A stretch of 64,000 nucleotides of DNA from an uncultured Fibrobacteraceae bacterium (GCA_964437115.1 CAYTFE010000001.1:169429-233428), one strand, 5' to 3'; counted from the first letter of the stretch, positions 8,968 through 44,040 are shown. The notes: generated from the letters alone by a model not told the origin. Made by a program: numbers and translations.

Positions 8968-9043
<76 letters not shown>

Positions 9044-9049
9044 TTTAGA

Positions 9050-9083
9050 AGAGGAGGCTATATTGTCCTCCTCTTTTTTATTT
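9050..9083 (+). terminator. Rho-independent terminator after tRNA-Gly.
   Basis: agaggagg-ctatattgt-cctcctct followed by a ttttttattt tract. Confidence 0.6.
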
Positions 9084-9133
9084 CTGAATCTTGACTTTAG
9101 TATGCTGATGCTTCATTCTTTAGAATCTGTCAA

Positions 9134-9209
9134 GGCGGCATAGCCAAGTGGTAAGGCGACGGTCTGCAAAATCGTTATTTCCCCAGTTCGAGTCTGGGTG
9201 CCGCCTCCA
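9134..9209 (+). tRNA. tRNA-Cys (GCA)
   Basis: Acceptor ggcggca/tgccgcc, anticodon loop ctGCAaa, T-arm gttcgagtc, CCA encoded. Confidence 0.8.
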
Positions 9210-9213
9210 GTTC

Positions 9214-9244
9214 AAACACCGGCATCGTCGGTGTTTTGTTTTAT
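9214..9244 (+). terminator. Rho-independent terminator after tRNA-Cys.
   Basis: aaacaccg-gcatcgt-cggtgttt followed by a tgttttat tract. Confidence 0.5.
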
Positions 9245-9291
9245 GACAAATGTTGACTTTTGACAACTTCTGAAGCAAGATTCTTCTGTGT

Positions 9292-9379
9292 GCCGGGGTG
9301 GCGAAATTGGTAGACGCAAGGGACTTAAAATCCCTCGATACGTTGTATCGTGCCGGTTCAAGTCCGGCCCTCGGCACCA
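9292..9379 (+). tRNA. tRNA-Leu (TAA), class II with a long variable arm.
   Basis: Acceptor gccgggg/cctcggc (one G·U pair), anticodon stem-loop aggga-ctTAAaa-tccct, long variable arm, CCA encoded. Confidence 0.85.
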
Positions 9380-14750: not shown

Positions 14751-14827
14751 GGGAGATTAGCTCAGCTGGCTAGAGTACTTGCTCGACACGCAAGGGGTCA
14801 CTGGTTCGAGTCCAGTATCTCCCACCA
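14751..14827 (+). tRNA. tRNA-Val (GAC)
   Basis: Acceptor gggagat/atctccc, anticodon stem-loop cttgc-tcGACac-gcaag, T-arm ggttcgagtcc, CCA encoded. Confidence 0.85.
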
Positions 14828-18237: not shown

Positions 18238-19263
18238 ATGGAGTGGTTGACTGAAATGCGGGAAAATGGTCTTGCTCTGATTGCAGGAGTCGATTCTATC
18301 GACTCCCTGGAGCAAGCCCGAGTGGAACTGTTAGGGCGTAAAGGTAAGTTGACTACGCAACTGCGTGGGTTGAAAGATTTACCTGATGATGAACGACCTG
18401 AAGCAGGCGCAGCTCTGAATAAGTTGCGCCAGGAATATGAAGTTTTGATTGAGGAGCGGAAAACTTCATTCGCAGCGCAAAAAGAAGCTTCAATGGCCGA
18501 TGGTTGCGATTTGACCTTGCCAAGCATAACTCCGGTTACTCCTGGCAATCGTCACCCTCTAACATCGGTGATCAACGAAATATGCGATATATTTTATGGC
18601 ATGGGATTTTCACGTGAAGATGGTCCAGATGTTGAATTGGACTATTATAATTTTACTGCTTTGAATTTTCCCGATGACCATCCAGCTCGCGACATTCAAG
18701 ATACTTTCTACATAAACGAAAAAGTACTCCTAAGAACACAAACTTCACCAGCTCAAGTGCGAATAATGGAACAACAAACTCCACCATTGGCAGTTATTGT
18801 ACCTGGCAGAGTTTATCGCAATGAGGCCCTTGACGCTTCTCATGTAGCTGAATTTTTTCAAATTGAGGGACTTTATGTCGGCAAAGACGTAAGTCTTGCA
18901 GATCTTAAAACAACTGTACTTCAGTTTGTAACACAGTTTTATGGCGAAGATGTTATTACACGCTTCCGACCTCACTTTTTCCCGTTTACTGAACCATCAG
19001 TTGAAGTCGATATGCAGTGCATGGCTTGTCATGGTGATGGATGTAACGTCTGTGGCAAAACAGGATGGCTGGAAATTATGGGTGCAGGGATGGTTCATCC
19101 AAACGTTTTCAAGTCTGCTGGATATGATCCAGATGAGTATACTGGTTTTGCGTTTGGACTGGGTATTGATAGAATAGCAATGTTAAAACATGCAATTAAA
19201 GACATTCGCTATCTATATGAAAATGATCTTAGATTTCTTTCACAGTTCAGGAGTGTACGTTGA
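18238..19263 (+). CDS. pheS: Phenylalanyl-tRNA synthetase alpha subunit.
   Basis: Class II motifs (FPFTEPS, GAGMVHPNV, GFAFGLGIDRIAML). Confidence 0.95.
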   Translation: MEWLTEMRENGLALIAGVDSIDSLEQARVELLGRKGKLTTQLRGLKDLPDDERPEAGAALNKLRQEYEVLIEERKTSFAAQKEASMADGCDLTLPSITPVTPGNRHPLTSVINEICDIFYGMGFSREDGPDVELDYYNFTALNFPDDHPARDIQDTFYINEKVLLRTQTSPAQVRIMEQQTPPLAVIVPGRVYRNEALDASHVAEFFQIEGLYVGKDVSLADLKTTVLQFVTQFYGEDVITRFRPHFFPFTEPSVEVDMQCMACHGDGCNVCGKTGWLEIMGAGMVHPNVFKSAGYDPDEYTGFAFGLGIDRIAMLKHAIKDIRYLYENDLRFLSQFRSVR

Positions 19264-21716
19264 ATATAAGTCTGAATTGGCTAAAAGATTTTGTAACCTG
19301 GGATTGCTCTGTTGAAGAGCTCGCTGAAAAACTGACTCTGGTTGGACTCAATGTTGAAGAAATAAGCGAGTATGTCAGGGAATATCCTGGTGTAGTTGTT
19401 GGTTATGTAGAAACTTGCGAACAGCACCCAGATGCTGACAAACTCAGCCTGTGTACCGTAAATAACGGTGAGTCTGTTTCACAGGTTATTTGTGGTGCTA
19501 CCAATGTCAAAGCAGGTATGAATATTGTTTTCGCCCAAACCGGTGCGATGCTTCCAGGTGAATTTAAAATAAAGAAAGCCAAGATCCGCGGAGTCGAGAG
19601 TTTTGGTATGATTTGTAGTGAGTCTGAACTTGGCCTTGCTGTAAACAGCGATGGCATAATGGAATTAGCTTCTGACTTGAAACCAGGAACTCCAATTGAT
19701 GAACTATTTGGATACAGGGATACAGTCCTGGATGTTGAAGTAACGCCGAATCGACCAGATCTTTTATGTCATCTCGGAGTAGCCAGGGAAGTTGCTGCCA
19801 TTACAGGTTCTTTACTTAACACTCCAGAGGTATGGTCGCCACCTAAAGCAGGCAAGGAGGTTGTTGATTTTACTGTTGAGATAGAAGAATTTACAGATTG
19901 TTCAAGATATACAGCACATCTTGCAAGAGAACTAAAAGTTAAGCCATCACCTCAGGAAATGATAAATCGACTTACGGCTGTTGGTCTAAGGCCAATAAAC
20001 AACATTGTTGATATTACAAATTATGTGATGTTTGAACTTGGTCAGCCAATGCATGCTTTTGACCTGAATAAAATAAGCGGCACCCGTCTTTTTACTCGTA
20101 AATCCAAGGGTGAAGAAAAATTCGTTACTCTTGATGGTATTGAACGGAATCTGTCAGATCAAGATCTTGTTATTGCAGATAGTATCGGGACTGTAGCTGT
20201 TGCGGGAGTTATGGGTGGACAAAGAAGTGAAGTTGATGAAGATACAACAGACCTTCTTCTTGAAAGCGCGTATTTCAATCCATCTCTAATTAGAAAAACA
20301 TCACGAAAATTGCAACTGCAGAGCGATAGCTCATATCGATTTGAAAGAACTGTCGATTGGGAAAATGTAGATTTTGCTGCCAAGAGAGCACTGTATTTAT
20401 TACAAAAAAATGCTGATGCTCATATAGTTTCAAATTTTGTTGATCGACAGGATCCAGACAGAGCTGAAATTAATACTGTTCCACTAAGAGTCGAGCAGGT
20501 TAACAGGCTTTTGGGTGCTGAAATTACAACTACAGAAGTGGTCGATATTTTAGCCAGCATTGGTTTGAAAAGTAAATTGCTGGGACAAGCTTCTGATCGG
20601 AAAAGTGTAACAGGTAAATTGATGGTAACAATTCCATCTTTCCGCCGAGATATTTTTATTGAAGTTGATTTGATTGAAGAAGTAGCCAGAATTTACGGTT
20701 TTAATAATCTTAAAATTGAATCGAACTTTAGAAGTGGAACTGGCGTAAAGCGCAGGGAATGTGATCAGGTCCTTGAAAAAGCTGCTGACTATTTGACAGG
20801 TTCAGGCTTCTCTGAAATTATAACTTCATCTTTTGTTTCATTGGAGAATGTTCTTAATCTGGGAATTACTGAAGATGACTATCGCTTTGATATGATGAGA
20901 ATTCACAATCCTCATCACGGTGGCGAAACTCTTCTGCGGACAACTATGGTTCCATCAATGCTGGATACGATTCGTCGAAACATCAACGCAGACGCAAATA
21001 TCCCGGTTAAATTGTACCAGACTAATACTGTTTTTCTTCCATCGCTGAAACTTGAACGTGAGATGCGACACGAAGATGAAAAGCTTTTACCTCTTGAGAG
21101 GAAAGTTCTTCAATTCGCAATAGCAGGTAATGAAGAGCAAGCTCATCATTCCTTACCAATGGTTTTGATGGAATTGAAAGGGATTATGGAGCAACTCTCA
21201 ATCAATCTGGGTGAACAATTGGTTATCACACCTGGTGGAGAAGAACCTTATTACCAACAGGGTCTGCAGTTCAATTTGAGTAACACATCTGTTGACAAAA
21301 TAGGTAGTATGGGACTTGTTTCAAGATCAGTATTGTCGAAATACAACATAGATTTCCCTGTTTCAATTGTTGAGTTGGACTTAGGCAGGTTTGGTTCAAA
21401 TGTTCCTACTGTGAAATTTGCTGATTATTCGAGATATCCAGCTTCAACCAGAGATTTATCTTTAATTGCTCCTGAAATAGTTAGTTACGAGAGCATAATT
21501 GAAGCTGTTGCAGATTCAGCAGGTAAGCTACTTGTTGATATTGAAATGTTCGACATTTATAAGGGAAAAAACATTCCTTCTGGATCAGTTTCTTTAGGAA
21601 TTCGCTTGAAATTTCAGTCAACCAAGAGTAGCCTGAAGAGCAAAGCTGTTGATGTAGCAATTAAAAAGGTTACAGAACGGCTTTCTGGCTCGCTTGGCGT
21701 CACCATAAGGGACTAG
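19260..21716 (+). CDS. pheT: Phenylalanyl-tRNA synthetase beta subunit.
   Basis: The TTG start overlaps the pheS stop (TTGA). MNISLNWLKDFV N-terminus, plus tRNA-binding, B3/B4 and FDX-ACB domains. Confidence 0.95.
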   Translation: MNISLNWLKDFVTWDCSVEELAEKLTLVGLNVEEISEYVREYPGVVVGYVETCEQHPDADKLSLCTVNNGESVSQVICGATNVKAGMNIVFAQTGAMLPGEFKIKKAKIRGVESFGMICSESELGLAVNSDGIMELASDLKPGTPIDELFGYRDTVLDVEVTPNRPDLLCHLGVAREVAAITGSLLNTPEVWSPPKAGKEVVDFTVEIEEFTDCSRYTAHLARELKVKPSPQEMINRLTAVGLRPINNIVDITNYVMFELGQPMHAFDLNKISGTRLFTRKSKGEEKFVTLDGIERNLSDQDLVIADSIGTVAVAGVMGGQRSEVDEDTTDLLLESAYFNPSLIRKTSRKLQLQSDSSYRFERTVDWENVDFAAKRALYLLQKNADAHIVSNFVDRQDPDRAEINTVPLRVEQVNRLLGAEITTTEVVDILASIGLKSKLLGQASDRKSVTGKLMVTIPSFRRDIFIEVDLIEEVARIYGFNNLKIESNFRSGTGVKRRECDQVLEKAADYLTGSGFSEIITSSFVSLENVLNLGITEDDYRFDMMRIHNPHHGGETLLRTTMVPSMLDTIRRNINADANIPVKLYQTNTVFLPSLKLEREMRHEDEKLLPLERKVLQFAIAGNEEQAHHSLPMVLMELKGIMEQLSINLGEQLVITPGGEEPYYQQGLQFNLSNTSVDKIGSMGLVSRSVLSKYNIDFPVSIVELDLGRFGSNVPTVKFADYSRYPASTRDLSLIAPEIVSYESIIEAVADSAGKLLVDIEMFDIYKGKNIPSGSVSLGIRLKFQSTKSSLKSKAVDVAIKKVTERLSGSLGVTIRD

Positions 21717-21732
21717 TTCACAGGAGATAACG

Positions 21733-21996
21733 GTGACTGATAACTGCAATATACTTGAAGAGAAAATGATGCGTGCTGTTGGCGCAATACGTGAACTTAA
21801 GAATAGCAATTCACGATTGATTCAACAAAGAGATGAACTCGAGGCCCGTGTTGAGGCTTTGCAAATAGAGATTGGTCGCATGAAAAGCAATATCGACGAA
21901 TCGCGATCAGATAATTATTTCGTCGATAATTTTGAAGAGAAACGTCGCTTGATTGAAGAGAAGGTTGGAGATCTGTTAGCAGAATTAGACTCCTGA
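21733..21996 (+). CDS. Small coiled-coil protein (ZapB-like?) upstream of zapA.
   Basis: 87 aa, predicted coiled coil, co-oriented 16 nt after pheT. Function inferred only from its position next to zapA. Confidence 0.35.
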   Translation: MTDNCNILEEKMMRAVGAIRELKNSNSRLIQQRDELEARVEALQIEIGRMKSNIDESRSDNYFVDNFEEKRRLIEEKVGDLLAELDS

Positions 21997-22056
21997 TGTA
22001 GGTAACGGAATTATTTTGTTACTAATCCTTTGCGGCTTTAGTTCGGGAAGACGAAT

Positions 22057-22350
22057 ATGGTCGATCCGAAAAGTGTAACAGTTAAAATCTACGGGCAGGA
22101 TTATACACTGCGCGGTGATACCGATGCGACCTATGTACTTAAGGTCGCCGGACTCGTTGATCAGAAAATGCAAGAAGTTGCAGCAAATTCCAATTTAATT
22201 GCTGTTGAAAAAGTTGCTATATTAGCTGCTGTAAATTTGGCAGATGAGTTACTTCGTGAACGTCATAGTCATAATGAGACTCTGCAAAAGTTGGAAGATA
22301 GAGTTTCCCAGGCAGCGGAATTTCTGGACAAAGAGTTGGAAAACCTGTAG
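22057..22350 (+). CDS. zapA: Cell division protein ZapA.
   Basis: 97 aa. VKIYGQDYTLRGD...ILAAVNLADEL pattern, typical of ZapA. Confidence 0.65.
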   Translation: MVDPKSVTVKIYGQDYTLRGDTDATYVLKVAGLVDQKMQEVAANSNLIAVEKVAILAAVNLADELLRERHSHNETLQKLEDRVSQAAEFLDKELENL

Positions 22351-22371
22351 ACTGTTATATAAAGGAATCAT

Positions 22372-22558
22372 TTCAAGATTCCCTACCATGTTTGTGATGT
22401 GCCGCTTGGTTTGAGCCAACGTTATTCGTGAGGATGGTCACGTTTTAAGTCGGCTGTCATGCCCCAAAGGGGGAAGGCAAAAGGTTAAACAGGCTATCCG
22501 CCTTTGGAGCAATTGGTTCAGTTGCTTCCGGTCACACGGCTTGGCGGGGAATCTTTAA
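22372..22558 (+). ncRNA. Structured RNA, candidate 6S RNA (ssrS-like), between zapA and rny.
   Basis: A long imperfect helix: AAGATTCCC (22375-22383) pairs with GGGAATCTT (22547-22555). Internal pairs include UGUGA/UCACA and CCAAAGG/CCUUUGG. The predicted RNA is about 185 nt, has locally higher GC, and encodes no ORF. In E. coli ssrS lies immediately downstream of zapA. Confidence 0.35.
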
Positions 22559-22604
22559 TTTTTCTAAATCTTCTGCCTCCTTTCCAGTCAGGGAAGGAAT
22601 TATA

Positions 22605-24164
22605 ATGACTTGGGAATATTATTTAGCTCTAGCAATCACTTTGATTGTTGGCTTTTTCGTGGGATTGCTTGTTCTTAATTTCATAAATAAGAAAAATGGA
22701 GAAATAGCTCGCGAAAAATCCCACCGCCTGATTGAAGAGGCAAACCGGGAGTCTGCGAATATAATTAAAACAGCTTCTCTTGAAGCCAAAGACGAATATT
22801 TTAAATCGAGAAAGTTATTTGAAAGTGAAACAGAGAAGACACGAGAAGAACAATCTCGTAGGACATCTGTTTTAGATCAAAGAGAAACTAACCTTCACAA
22901 GAAAGTAACTTTTGTCGATCATAAAGAAGCAAAATTAGAAAAAATAGAAACTGCACTTAAAGATAAAGAAGAATTGTTAAAAAAAGAAAAAGAACAAGCA
23001 TCTTTAATCGTGTCCAAACAGCAGGATGTACTTGAACAGATTGCTGGTATGACTGCTGAAAATGCAAAGCAAACTTTGATGGACAATATGCTTTCTGAAG
23101 CAAAACTAGCAGCTGCTAAATCATTATATGAAATCAAGTCTGATACAGAAAGAAGAGCTCGCAAAGATGCTCAAAATATTCTTTCACTGGCAATTCATCG
23201 ATATGCTTCTGAACATGTAGCTGAAACATCAGTTTCAGTTGTAGATCTTCCAAATGATGATATGAAAGGGCGAATTATCGGTCGTGAAGGCCGAAATATT
23301 CGTGCATTTGAATTATCGACGGGTGTTGATGTGATTATTGATGACACGCCTGAGGCGGTAATAATTTCTGGTTTCGATCCAGTTCGTAGAGAAGTAGCTT
23401 GTATTGCACTAAGAAAATTAATTAAAGATGGTAGAATTCACCCTGGAAGAATTGAAGAAACTGTTGAAAAAGTTTCGAAAGAAATGGATGAAAAGCTCAA
23501 CGATATAGGGGAACAAGCATGTATTGACCTTGATTTACAGAATGTTGACCACAGATTGTATTACCACATTGGTCGTCTTCATTATAGAACCAGTTATGGT
23601 CAGAACCTGTTGATTCATAGCAAGGAAGTTGCTGCTCTATGCTCAACGATTGCTTCTGAAATTGGGCTTGATCCTGTAGTTGCAAAGCGATGTGGCTTTT
23701 TGCATGACATAGGTAAAGCAACTGACCATGAAGTGGAAGGTCCACATGCTGAAATAGGTGGTCGACTCGCAAGAAAATTCAAAGAAAAACCCAATGTAGT
23801 AAATGCAATAGAGGGCCACCATCATGACATTGAGGCAATTTCACCTTACACATGGATAACTTCAGCTGCAGATGCTGTGTCAGCATCCAGACCGGGTGCA
23901 CGTCGCGAAAGCTTTGATAACTATATCAAGCGCCTGGAGAATCTTGAGCGAATAGCTGAAAGTTACGATGGCGTAGAAAAATCTTTTGCTATTCAAGCGG
24001 GAAGAGAAATTCGAATTCTTGTTGATAGCGCGCAAGTTTCAGATGCAGAGACTACACTTATGTCTGAAGAGATTTGCAAAAAAATTGAAGGTGAGCTGGA
24101 GTACCCGGGCCAGATTAAAGTCATGGTTTTACGTGAAACCAGATCAGTTTCTTACGCAAAATAA
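22605..24164 (+). CDS. rny: Ribonuclease Y (N-terminal TM, KH domain, HD domain).
   Basis: N-terminal TM, coiled-coil region, KH motif (IIGREGRNIRAFE) and HD motif (LHDIGK). Confidence 0.9.
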   Translation: MTWEYYLALAITLIVGFFVGLLVLNFINKKNGEIAREKSHRLIEEANRESANIIKTASLEAKDEYFKSRKLFESETEKTREEQSRRTSVLDQRETNLHKKVTFVDHKEAKLEKIETALKDKEELLKKEKEQASLIVSKQQDVLEQIAGMTAENAKQTLMDNMLSEAKLAAAKSLYEIKSDTERRARKDAQNILSLAIHRYASEHVAETSVSVVDLPNDDMKGRIIGREGRNIRAFELSTGVDVIIDDTPEAVIISGFDPVRREVACIALRKLIKDGRIHPGRIEETVEKVSKEMDEKLNDIGEQACIDLDLQNVDHRLYYHIGRLHYRTSYGQNLLIHSKEVAALCSTIASEIGLDPVVAKRCGFLHDIGKATDHEVEGPHAEIGGRLARKFKEKPNVVNAIEGHHHDIEAISPYTWITSAADAVSASRPGARRESFDNYIKRLENLERIAESYDGVEKSFAIQAGREIRILVDSAQVSDAETTLMSEEICKKIEGELEYPGQIKVMVLRETRSVSYAK

Positions 24165-30558: not shown

Positions 30559-30635
30559 GCGCCCGTAGCTCAGCTGGATAGAGCGTCTGCCTCCGGAGCA
30601 GAAGGTCGTGGGTTCAAATCCCGCCGGGCGTACCA
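30559..30635 (+). tRNA. tRNA-Arg (CCG)
   Basis: Acceptor gcgcccg/cgggcgt, anticodon stem-loop tctgc-ctCCGga-gcaga, T-arm ggttcaaatcc, CCA encoded. Confidence 0.85.
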
Positions 30636-39670: not shown

Positions 39671-39747
39671 TGGTACCCCTGACAGGAATTGAACCTGTGG
39701 CCCCTGGTTTAGGAAACCAGTGCTCTATCCAACTGAGCTACAGGGGC
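39671..39747 (-). tRNA. tRNA-Arg (CCT)
   Basis: Reverse complement reads gcccctgtagctcagttggatagagcactggtttCCTaaaccaggggccacaggttcaattcctgtcaggggtacca. Anticodon loop ttCCTaa, CCA encoded. Confidence 0.85.
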
Positions 39748-43962: not shown

Positions 43963-44040
43963 ATGGTCGGGGCGGCGGGATTTGAACCCACGACCCCTTG
44001 CACCCCATGCAAGTACGCTACCGGACTGCGCTACGCCCCG
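43963..44040 (-). tRNA. tRNA-Pro (GGG)
   Basis: Reverse complement reads cggggcgtagcgcagtccggtagcgtacttgcatGGGgtgcaaggggtcgtgggttcaaatcccgccgccccgacca. C1:G72 pair typical of tRNA-Pro, G37, CCA encoded. Confidence 0.85.

Follow-up and report, generated by a model that had tools for sequence, protein, structure and literature searches.

A canonical 6S RNA gene (ssrS) of about 180 nt, at 22377-22554 on the plus strand, almost certainly accounts for the structured spacer between zapA and rny in the DNA analyzed here, a 64-kb stretch from an uncultured Fibrobacteraceae bacterium that we refer to as the window. The assignment is carried by a full-length match to the family covariance model, by a fold with compensatory base changes in related genomes, by the strand that those changes and the models select, and by the position of the element between zapA and rny. 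The RNA is a routine member of a long-known and nearly universal RNA family.

An open reading frame (ORF) listing of the window places the element in the order infC, rpmI, rplT, pheS, pheT, an 87-aa ORF, a 97-aa ORF, a 254-nt spacer (22351-22604) and a 519-aa ORF. The features of the locus are as follows.

18238-19263: pheS, upstream of the ZapB-like ORF, zapA, the 6S RNA and rny
19260-21716: pheT, directly before the ZapB-like ORF
21733-21996, plus strand: ZapB-like coiled-coil ORF, 87 aa, with a GTG start and GGAGA 6 nt upstream
22057-22350, plus strand: zapA, 97 aa, cell-division protein ZapA (PF05164, 69.1 bits; gathering score 23.8)
22377-22554, plus strand: 6S RNA (ssrS) gene, full-length match to RF00013, 178 nt
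22605-24164, plus strand: rny, ribonuclease Y, 519 aa (TIGR03319, 669.5 bits; cutoff 454), with Pfam RNase_Y_N, KH and HD domains

The two short ORFs are named with some caution. The 97-aa product scores under the cutoff of the NCBIfam ZapA equivalog models (61.2 vs 80) and is therefore described as a ZapA-family protein, not as a curated equivalog. The 87-aa product reaches 25.7 bits against the Pfam ZapB model (PF06005), under its gathering score of 31.5, so we call it ZapB-like, or a coiled-coil protein, rather than ZapB; no NCBIfam model matches it. A homologue of this ORF lies between pheT and zapA in all 19 of the nearest related loci described below (phmmer E 1e-44 to 7e-12), and zapA homologues stand directly upstream of the 6S RNA in the same loci. 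Some of the coiled-coil homologues overlap the 3' end of pheT. The conserved place of the 87-aa ORF before zapA is consistent with a role in cell division, although it is no proof of one, and in these lineages the protein may represent a so far unnamed, ZapB-like partner of ZapA.

To identify the RNA, the whole window was scanned with Rfam 15 at the gathering threshold, after which positions 21700-22700 were searched with all 4227 families at E<=1. RF00013 (6S/SsrS) matches 22377-22554 on the plus strand with 73.6 bits, 27 bits over its gathering score of 46.4 (E 1.3e-12), and the match runs over model positions 1-187 of 187; it is the one copy of 6S RNA that the scan finds in the window. No competing family appears in 21700-22700, where the search returned, besides RF00013, two 13-bit noise matches to unrelated families, and no match to 6S-Flavo, Ms1 or any other polymerase-binding or 6S-like Rfam family is seen there at E<=1. 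The gathering-threshold scan of the whole window also returned seven tRNA genes, at 8968-9376 (plus strand, a cluster of three), 14751-14824 and 30559-30632 (both plus), and 39674-39747 and 43967-44040 (both minus), and beyond these and the 6S RNA it found no rRNA or further Rfam family above threshold.

These results weigh directly on the reading that the structure belongs to some other RNA class, either an Ms1-like or 6S-Flavo-like polymerase-binding RNA or an unrelated small RNA that resembles 6S in shape. Rod-shaped RNAs that contain internal loops can resemble one another, and the organism lies in or near the FCB group, whose Bacteroidota use a divergent 6S-like family. However, the RF00013 match spans the entire model and includes the conserved blocks beside the bubble, and the permissive scan yields nothing else but noise, which makes a different class extremely unlikely. 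The suggestion in the preliminary description that the structure might be another small RNA falls with it.

The composition of the spacer agrees with a structured, non-coding RNA. The GC content of the RNA is 0.52 (0.46-0.49 in 180-nt windows across it), compared with about 0.35-0.43 in the flanks. Within 22420-22604 no ORF of at least 40 aa was found, the region containing short mechanical ORFs of 22-33 aa and two 56-aa ORFs that extend into it from zapA; substitutions among relatives track base pairing rather than codons, which marks the 6S stretch as non-coding. Folded on its own, the plus strand has a minimum free energy (MFE) of -73.1 kcal/mol, as against -55.4 +/- 4.2 kcal/mol for 200 dinucleotide shuffles (z -4.17), and none of the 200 shuffles folds as well. 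Fold energy was dropped as a test of strand, the minus strand being comparably stable (z -4.60), and the strand was settled instead by G-U pairs, covariation and covariance-model scores.

Much of what had been proposed for this region from the sequence is borne out by these analyses. A coiled-coil gene, zapA and then an RNA do follow pheST, with the ORFs where they had been placed and zapA supported by its Pfam match; the stretch between zapA and rny is GC-enriched and ORF-free as described; and the long helix with perfectly pairing ends, as well as the 6S-like length and rod shape, are recovered by the full-length 178-nt RF00013 match and by the two structural models presented below. The covariance-model search and secondary-structure prediction suggested as checks both came out in favor of 6S RNA. 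The proposal that a 6S RNA in this lineage may not be catalogued was overstated, as this is a plain RF00013 member that any Infernal/Rfam pipeline would call.

The RNA has the layout of a rod with a closing stem, a central bubble and an apical stem, on which the Rfam alignment and an independent RNAalifold consensus of 14 sequences agree. Its elements, located by mapping alignment columns onto window positions, are listed here.

22377-22404, plus strand: closing stem, 5' arm, pairing with 22529-22553 (RNAalifold helix 1, 23 pairs, 95.3% of cells paired)
22411-22418, plus strand: conserved UUGAGCCA element, 5' strand of the bubble-side helix, whose partner is UGGUUCAG at 22514-22521
22419-22431, plus strand: central bubble, 5' strand (ACGUUAUUCGUGA), unpaired in the Rfam alignment and the RNAalifold consensus
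22432-22499, plus strand: apical (terminal) stem-loop, helices 3-6, with both-side changes in 11 of 17 pairs
22500-22513, plus strand: central bubble, 3' strand, likewise unpaired in the Rfam alignment and the RNAalifold consensus
22506-22528, plus strand: potential alternative hairpin GGAGCAAUUG-GUU-CAGUUGCUUC, present in the single-sequence MFE fold
22529-22553, plus strand: closing stem, 3' arm, pairing with 22377-22404

The predicted fold is closed at the base of the rod by its outermost helix, in which AAGATTCCC (22375-22383) pairs with its exact reverse complement GGGAATCTT (22547-22555); this helix can be extended to 22375-22556. Helix 2, formed by UUGAGCCA and UGGUUCAG, has 8 pairs (97.1% paired), is near-invariant in the 14 sequences and fits uGAgCC / GGuUCa in the Rfam consensus; UGAGCCAAC and GGUUCA do not vary among the 14, and both align to the Rfam consensus blocks that flank the bubble. 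The sequence of the 5' bubble strand differs among relatives, and the apical stem-loop varies in length, with whole RNAs of 162-179 nt.

Related loci were collected using the RNase Y protein as query, and 80 were fetched from species-representative genomes. The two closest come from unclassified marine-type metagenome-assembled genomes (MAGs) of about 41% GC, with RNase Y identities of 96% and 95%. These two, MAG isolates Ust_3 and SI048_bin22, stem from samples of the marine, oxygen-minimum-zone type. The next 17, also MAGs, have identities of 59-68% and 60-73% GC, and are labeled Fibrobacteraceae, Fibrobacter, Gemmatimonas, Latescibacterota, Krumholzibacteriia or plain 'bacterium'. All 19 share the order pheT, ZapB-like ORF, zapA, 6S, rny across a GC range of 40-73%, and in 17 of them RF00013 has a same-strand match immediately before rny. 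In the remaining two, L012 (3760-3935) and L014 (3742-3917), the 6S RNA is present by alignment and scores about 170 bits with R1, a clade covariance model that we built from 14 sequences. Their ends are the same as those of their neighbors, and it is apparently a longer, different apical stem that made the Rfam scan miss both, even under permissive settings. As they were recovered by position and clade model where the Rfam scan lost them, gene order is a useful guide in the search for divergent 6S RNAs in MAGs.

The RNAalifold consensus of the 14 sequences contains 48 pairs, 13 of which show pair-preserving changes on both sides. Standard pairs occupy 95.2% of cells, compared with 34-55% when the 3' partners are slid by 1-3 columns. 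The covariation score is 0.259 vs 0.147 in column shuffles, with none of 500 shuffles reaching the observed value; kinship among the relatives, most of which are MAGs, inflates such shuffle-based statistics, and the slid-partner control is the one that addresses it. An alignment from the model search (A3) mixes plus- and minus-strand matches and was therefore kept out of the pair counts. The compensatory changes cluster in the apical stem while the closing stem and bubble-side blocks are near-invariant, which is the usual pattern in 6S RNA. The fold is conserved in related genomes, conservation whose absence the preliminary description had named as grounds for abandoning the idea.

Covariation of this kind also answers a further reading, on which the element is a GC-rich inverted repeat that arose by chance, or a decayed remnant without function. 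Both strands fold well, as those of any long inverted repeat would, but the 13 compensatory pairs are found across genomes of 40-73% GC, and the R1 score is strand-specific and comes on top of a full-length match to a curated family, so that we give this reading practically no weight. With R1 the window reaches 157.7 bits on the plus strand vs 22.5 on the minus strand. Furthermore, the consensus contains an invariant U-G pair in the closing stem (alignment columns 8/178) and an invariant G-U pair (columns 39/147), both of which would turn into A-C mismatches if the other strand were read; together with the preference of R1, this puts the gene on the plus strand.

In the alternative hairpin at 22506-22528, the 3' bubble strand pairs with sequence that lies past GGUUCA. 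The single-sequence MFE fold retains both stems of the rod but closes the bubble in part through this hairpin, and the open-bubble conformation therefore rests on the comparative model, not on thermodynamics alone. When the segment from each of the 20 clade members is folded alone, all 20 form a hairpin of 7-12 bp with -11 to -15 kcal/mol, and the stem survives an indel as well as substitutions on one side of a pair (A-U to G-U, U-A to U-G). For this tally the sequences were folded one by one; pair counts for the hairpin on alignment A1 were abandoned, MAFFT having shifted some rows by one column there. In more distant loci the 3'-bubble hairpin is placed differently.

In the literature, 6S RNA is described as a competitor of promoter DNA for the housekeeping RNA polymerase holoenzyme and as the template for short product RNAs, which trigger a rearrangement and the release of the enzyme (PMC4793215, PMC8876501, PMC10578484). 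The mechanism we propose for the RNA described here is taken from the family and from the E. coli and B. subtilis RNAs; its expression, exact ends, polymerase binding and product-RNA synthesis are inferred. The central bubble of the rod would mimic an open promoter; the RNA would fit into the active-site cleft of the RNA polymerase holoenzyme with its housekeeping sigma factor and sequester the enzyme, typically as growth slows. 6S RNAs are characteristically abundant, discrete transcripts, often with a build-up in stationary phase. Once nucleotides return, the polymerase would start on the 5' bubble strand and transcribe it into a short product RNA, reading on into the conserved UUGAGCC helix. 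This synthesis would unzip the helix, the 3' bubble strand would refold, probably into the 22506-22528 hairpin, and the enzyme would be released. The sequence holds the parts that such a cycle needs, namely a bubble between conserved helices and a conserved alternative hairpin. By this analogy 22419-22431 would be the template region in which product-RNA synthesis starts, and the 22506-22528 hairpin is a candidate for the rearrangement that frees the polymerase. With the product-RNA start site of E. coli placed on the window by alignment, the product RNA would start at C22419 and read 5'-GUUGGCUCAAACC; the predicted product complementary to 22407-22419 is 5'-GUUGGCUCAA.

How the RNA might be transcribed was considered using the sequences on either side of it.

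22325-22363, plus strand: weak candidate promoter region, within and just past the 3' end of zapA
22578-22598, plus strand: hairpin UCCUUUCC-AGUCA-GGGAAGGA in the rny leader, outside the 6S RNA (fold -11.1 kcal/mol)

A promoter scan found TGGACA-17-TAGACT at 22325-22353, and TTGGAA (22336-22341) followed by a 16-nt spacer and TATAAA (22358-22363) can be picked out by eye. The scan for sigma-70-type promoter consensus before the 6S RNA gives 1 site vs 2.4 expected by chance, which is not significant, and by eye the promoter-like hexamers at the end of zapA are kept only in the two close AT-rich relatives. Downstream, a U-rich stretch follows the closing stem in the AT-rich clade. The one terminator-like match inside the RNA (22427-22442) was set aside as merely part of the apical stem. 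In the high-GC relatives the zapA stop codon lies 0-25 nt from the 6S RNA, and inspection by eye revealed nothing resembling a promoter ahead of the RNA and no U-tract behind it; nor did the sequences on either side of the RNA show a shared motif by eye in the 17 relatives with an Rfam match (without L012 and L014). In several high-GC relatives (L003, L005 and L006) a TAG abuts the first base of the 6S match (...tag|GATTCCC), an apparent zapA stop; if it is indeed that stop, any 6S promoter would have to fall within zapA, unless the RNA arises by processing of the zapA transcript. Since no promoter or U-tract is seen in the high-GC relatives, the RNA may be cut from a zapA-6S-rny transcript, in which case it would still be a 6S RNA. 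Judged from these sequences, processing from such a transcript appears at least as likely as independent transcription.

The adjacency of 6S RNA and rny is much broader than this clade. Scored with R1 and RF00013, 36 of the 80 fetched loci, from several phyla, carry a plus-strand 6S RNA upstream of rny. Besides the nearest relatives, these loci are:

Moduliflexus/Vecturithrix/UASB bacteria: L020, L022, L023, L026, L029, L033
Acidobacteriota/Holophagae/Thermoanaerobaculia: L027, L039-L041, L050, L052, L055
Nitrospinota: L024, L053
Unclassified MAGs: L036, L037

The fetched Bacillota and Planctomycetota loci and the single Bacteroidota locus gave no 6S match. [quoted passage not shown]

The rny leader contains a conserved structure of its own. 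The 3' arm of the hairpin at 22578-22598 is the Shine-Dalgarno (SD) sequence of rny, whose ATG is at 22605, and an anti-SD/SD hairpin of -11 to -17 kcal/mol precedes rny in 19 of 20 clade loci that range from 40 to 73% GC. Versions of it are listed for L001-L018, one example being UUCCUUCCG-UUA-CGGAAGGAG, and no Rfam family matches it. The hairpin may regulate how RNase Y is translated, or autoregulation may act on it.

It is here that the alternative offered by the preliminary description, a structured 5' leader of rny, has to be weighed, in the form that the upstream structure is primarily a cis-acting element, for example one governing the processing or stability of the RNase Y mRNA, rather than a regulatory RNA in its own right. 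The 6S element is on the same strand as rny and 50 nt upstream of its start, their adjacency is kept in the 36 loci, no U-tract terminator was seen by eye between the RNA and rny in high-GC relatives, and the SD-covering hairpin indicates that the rny leader is itself under selection. Yet the element matches the 6S family over its full length, and elsewhere that family stands before unrelated genes, preceding fau in E. coli and adjoining rarA and uspA in lactic acid bacteria (PMC8414754), which argues that the structure is not tied to rny. We thus regard a primarily cis-acting leader as very unlikely. Part of the suggestion survives, in that co-transcription with rny is possible, but co-transcription with a downstream gene would not alone contradict a 6S role, and the RNA would still be a 6S family member.

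The conserved (pheT)-zapA-6S-rny order in FCB-group, Acidobacteriota, Nitrospinota and Moduliflexus-like loci raises the speculative idea of a functional coupling beyond inherited order. The 6S RNA would be cut from a zapA-6S-rny transcript, possibly by RNase Y, and the SD hairpin would make RNase Y translation depend on that processing. We think this unlikely, although if it were true, the level of a polymerase regulator would be tied to that of the main mRNA-decay nuclease.

The order zapA-6S-ygfA is described as typical of Gammaproteobacteria (PMC9788540). In the annotated E. coli chromosome zapA is followed 41 nt later by ssrS and then by fau, in agreement with the preliminary description, which placed ssrS just downstream of zapA in enterobacteria, and the E. 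coli 6S sequence has one match per genome, at the annotated ssrS, in 5426 complete genomes. The locus in the window is one more example of how the zapA-ssrS adjacency known from Gammaproteobacteria reaches into uncultured FCB-group lineages and other phyla, here with rny downstream. The locus should be labeled ssrS (6S RNA), and the spacer is neither an unexplained structured element nor a hunting ground for small ORFs; beyond correct annotation, the 6S locus matters little.

Comparison with better-known 6S systems places the RNA among the canonical members of the family. 6S-Flavo is the divergent 6S-like family of Flavobacteriia. Like it, the RNA described here is a 6S-like RNA from FCB-group bacteria, the group to which record titles assign the nearest relatives of the window, but it is of the canonical RF00013 type, with no 6S-Flavo match at E<=1. 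B. subtilis 6S-1 (bsrA) belongs to the same family, and both organisms use RNase Y. The 6S-1 product RNA of B. subtilis is initiated with G, and the product RNA predicted here also begins with G (5'-GUUGGCUCAAACC). Unlike the arrangement in this clade, Bacilli do not have 6S beside rny, in line with the fetched Bacillota loci, and the 64-kb window contains one 6S copy. B. subtilis 6S-1 presumably shares the cycle of sequestration and product-RNA release proposed above (PMC4793215, PMC8876501).

E. coli ssrS differs from the RNA in the window in having fau (ygfA) downstream instead of rny, and in a primary sequence that is unrelated outside the conserved blocks. E. coli 6S has an analogous 3'-bubble hairpin, CCUUGAACC/GGUUCAAGG, in a different register, as GGUUCAAGG forms its 3' arm there, whereas GGUU lies in the loop here. 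In other respects the two agree closely. They belong to the same family, share the layout of closing stem, bubble and apical stem with the UGAGCC and GGUUCA blocks, are of similar length (184 nt in E. coli, 178-184 nt here), and both have zapA upstream, the RNA beginning 41 nt after zapA in E. coli and 26 nt past the zapA stop codon in the window.
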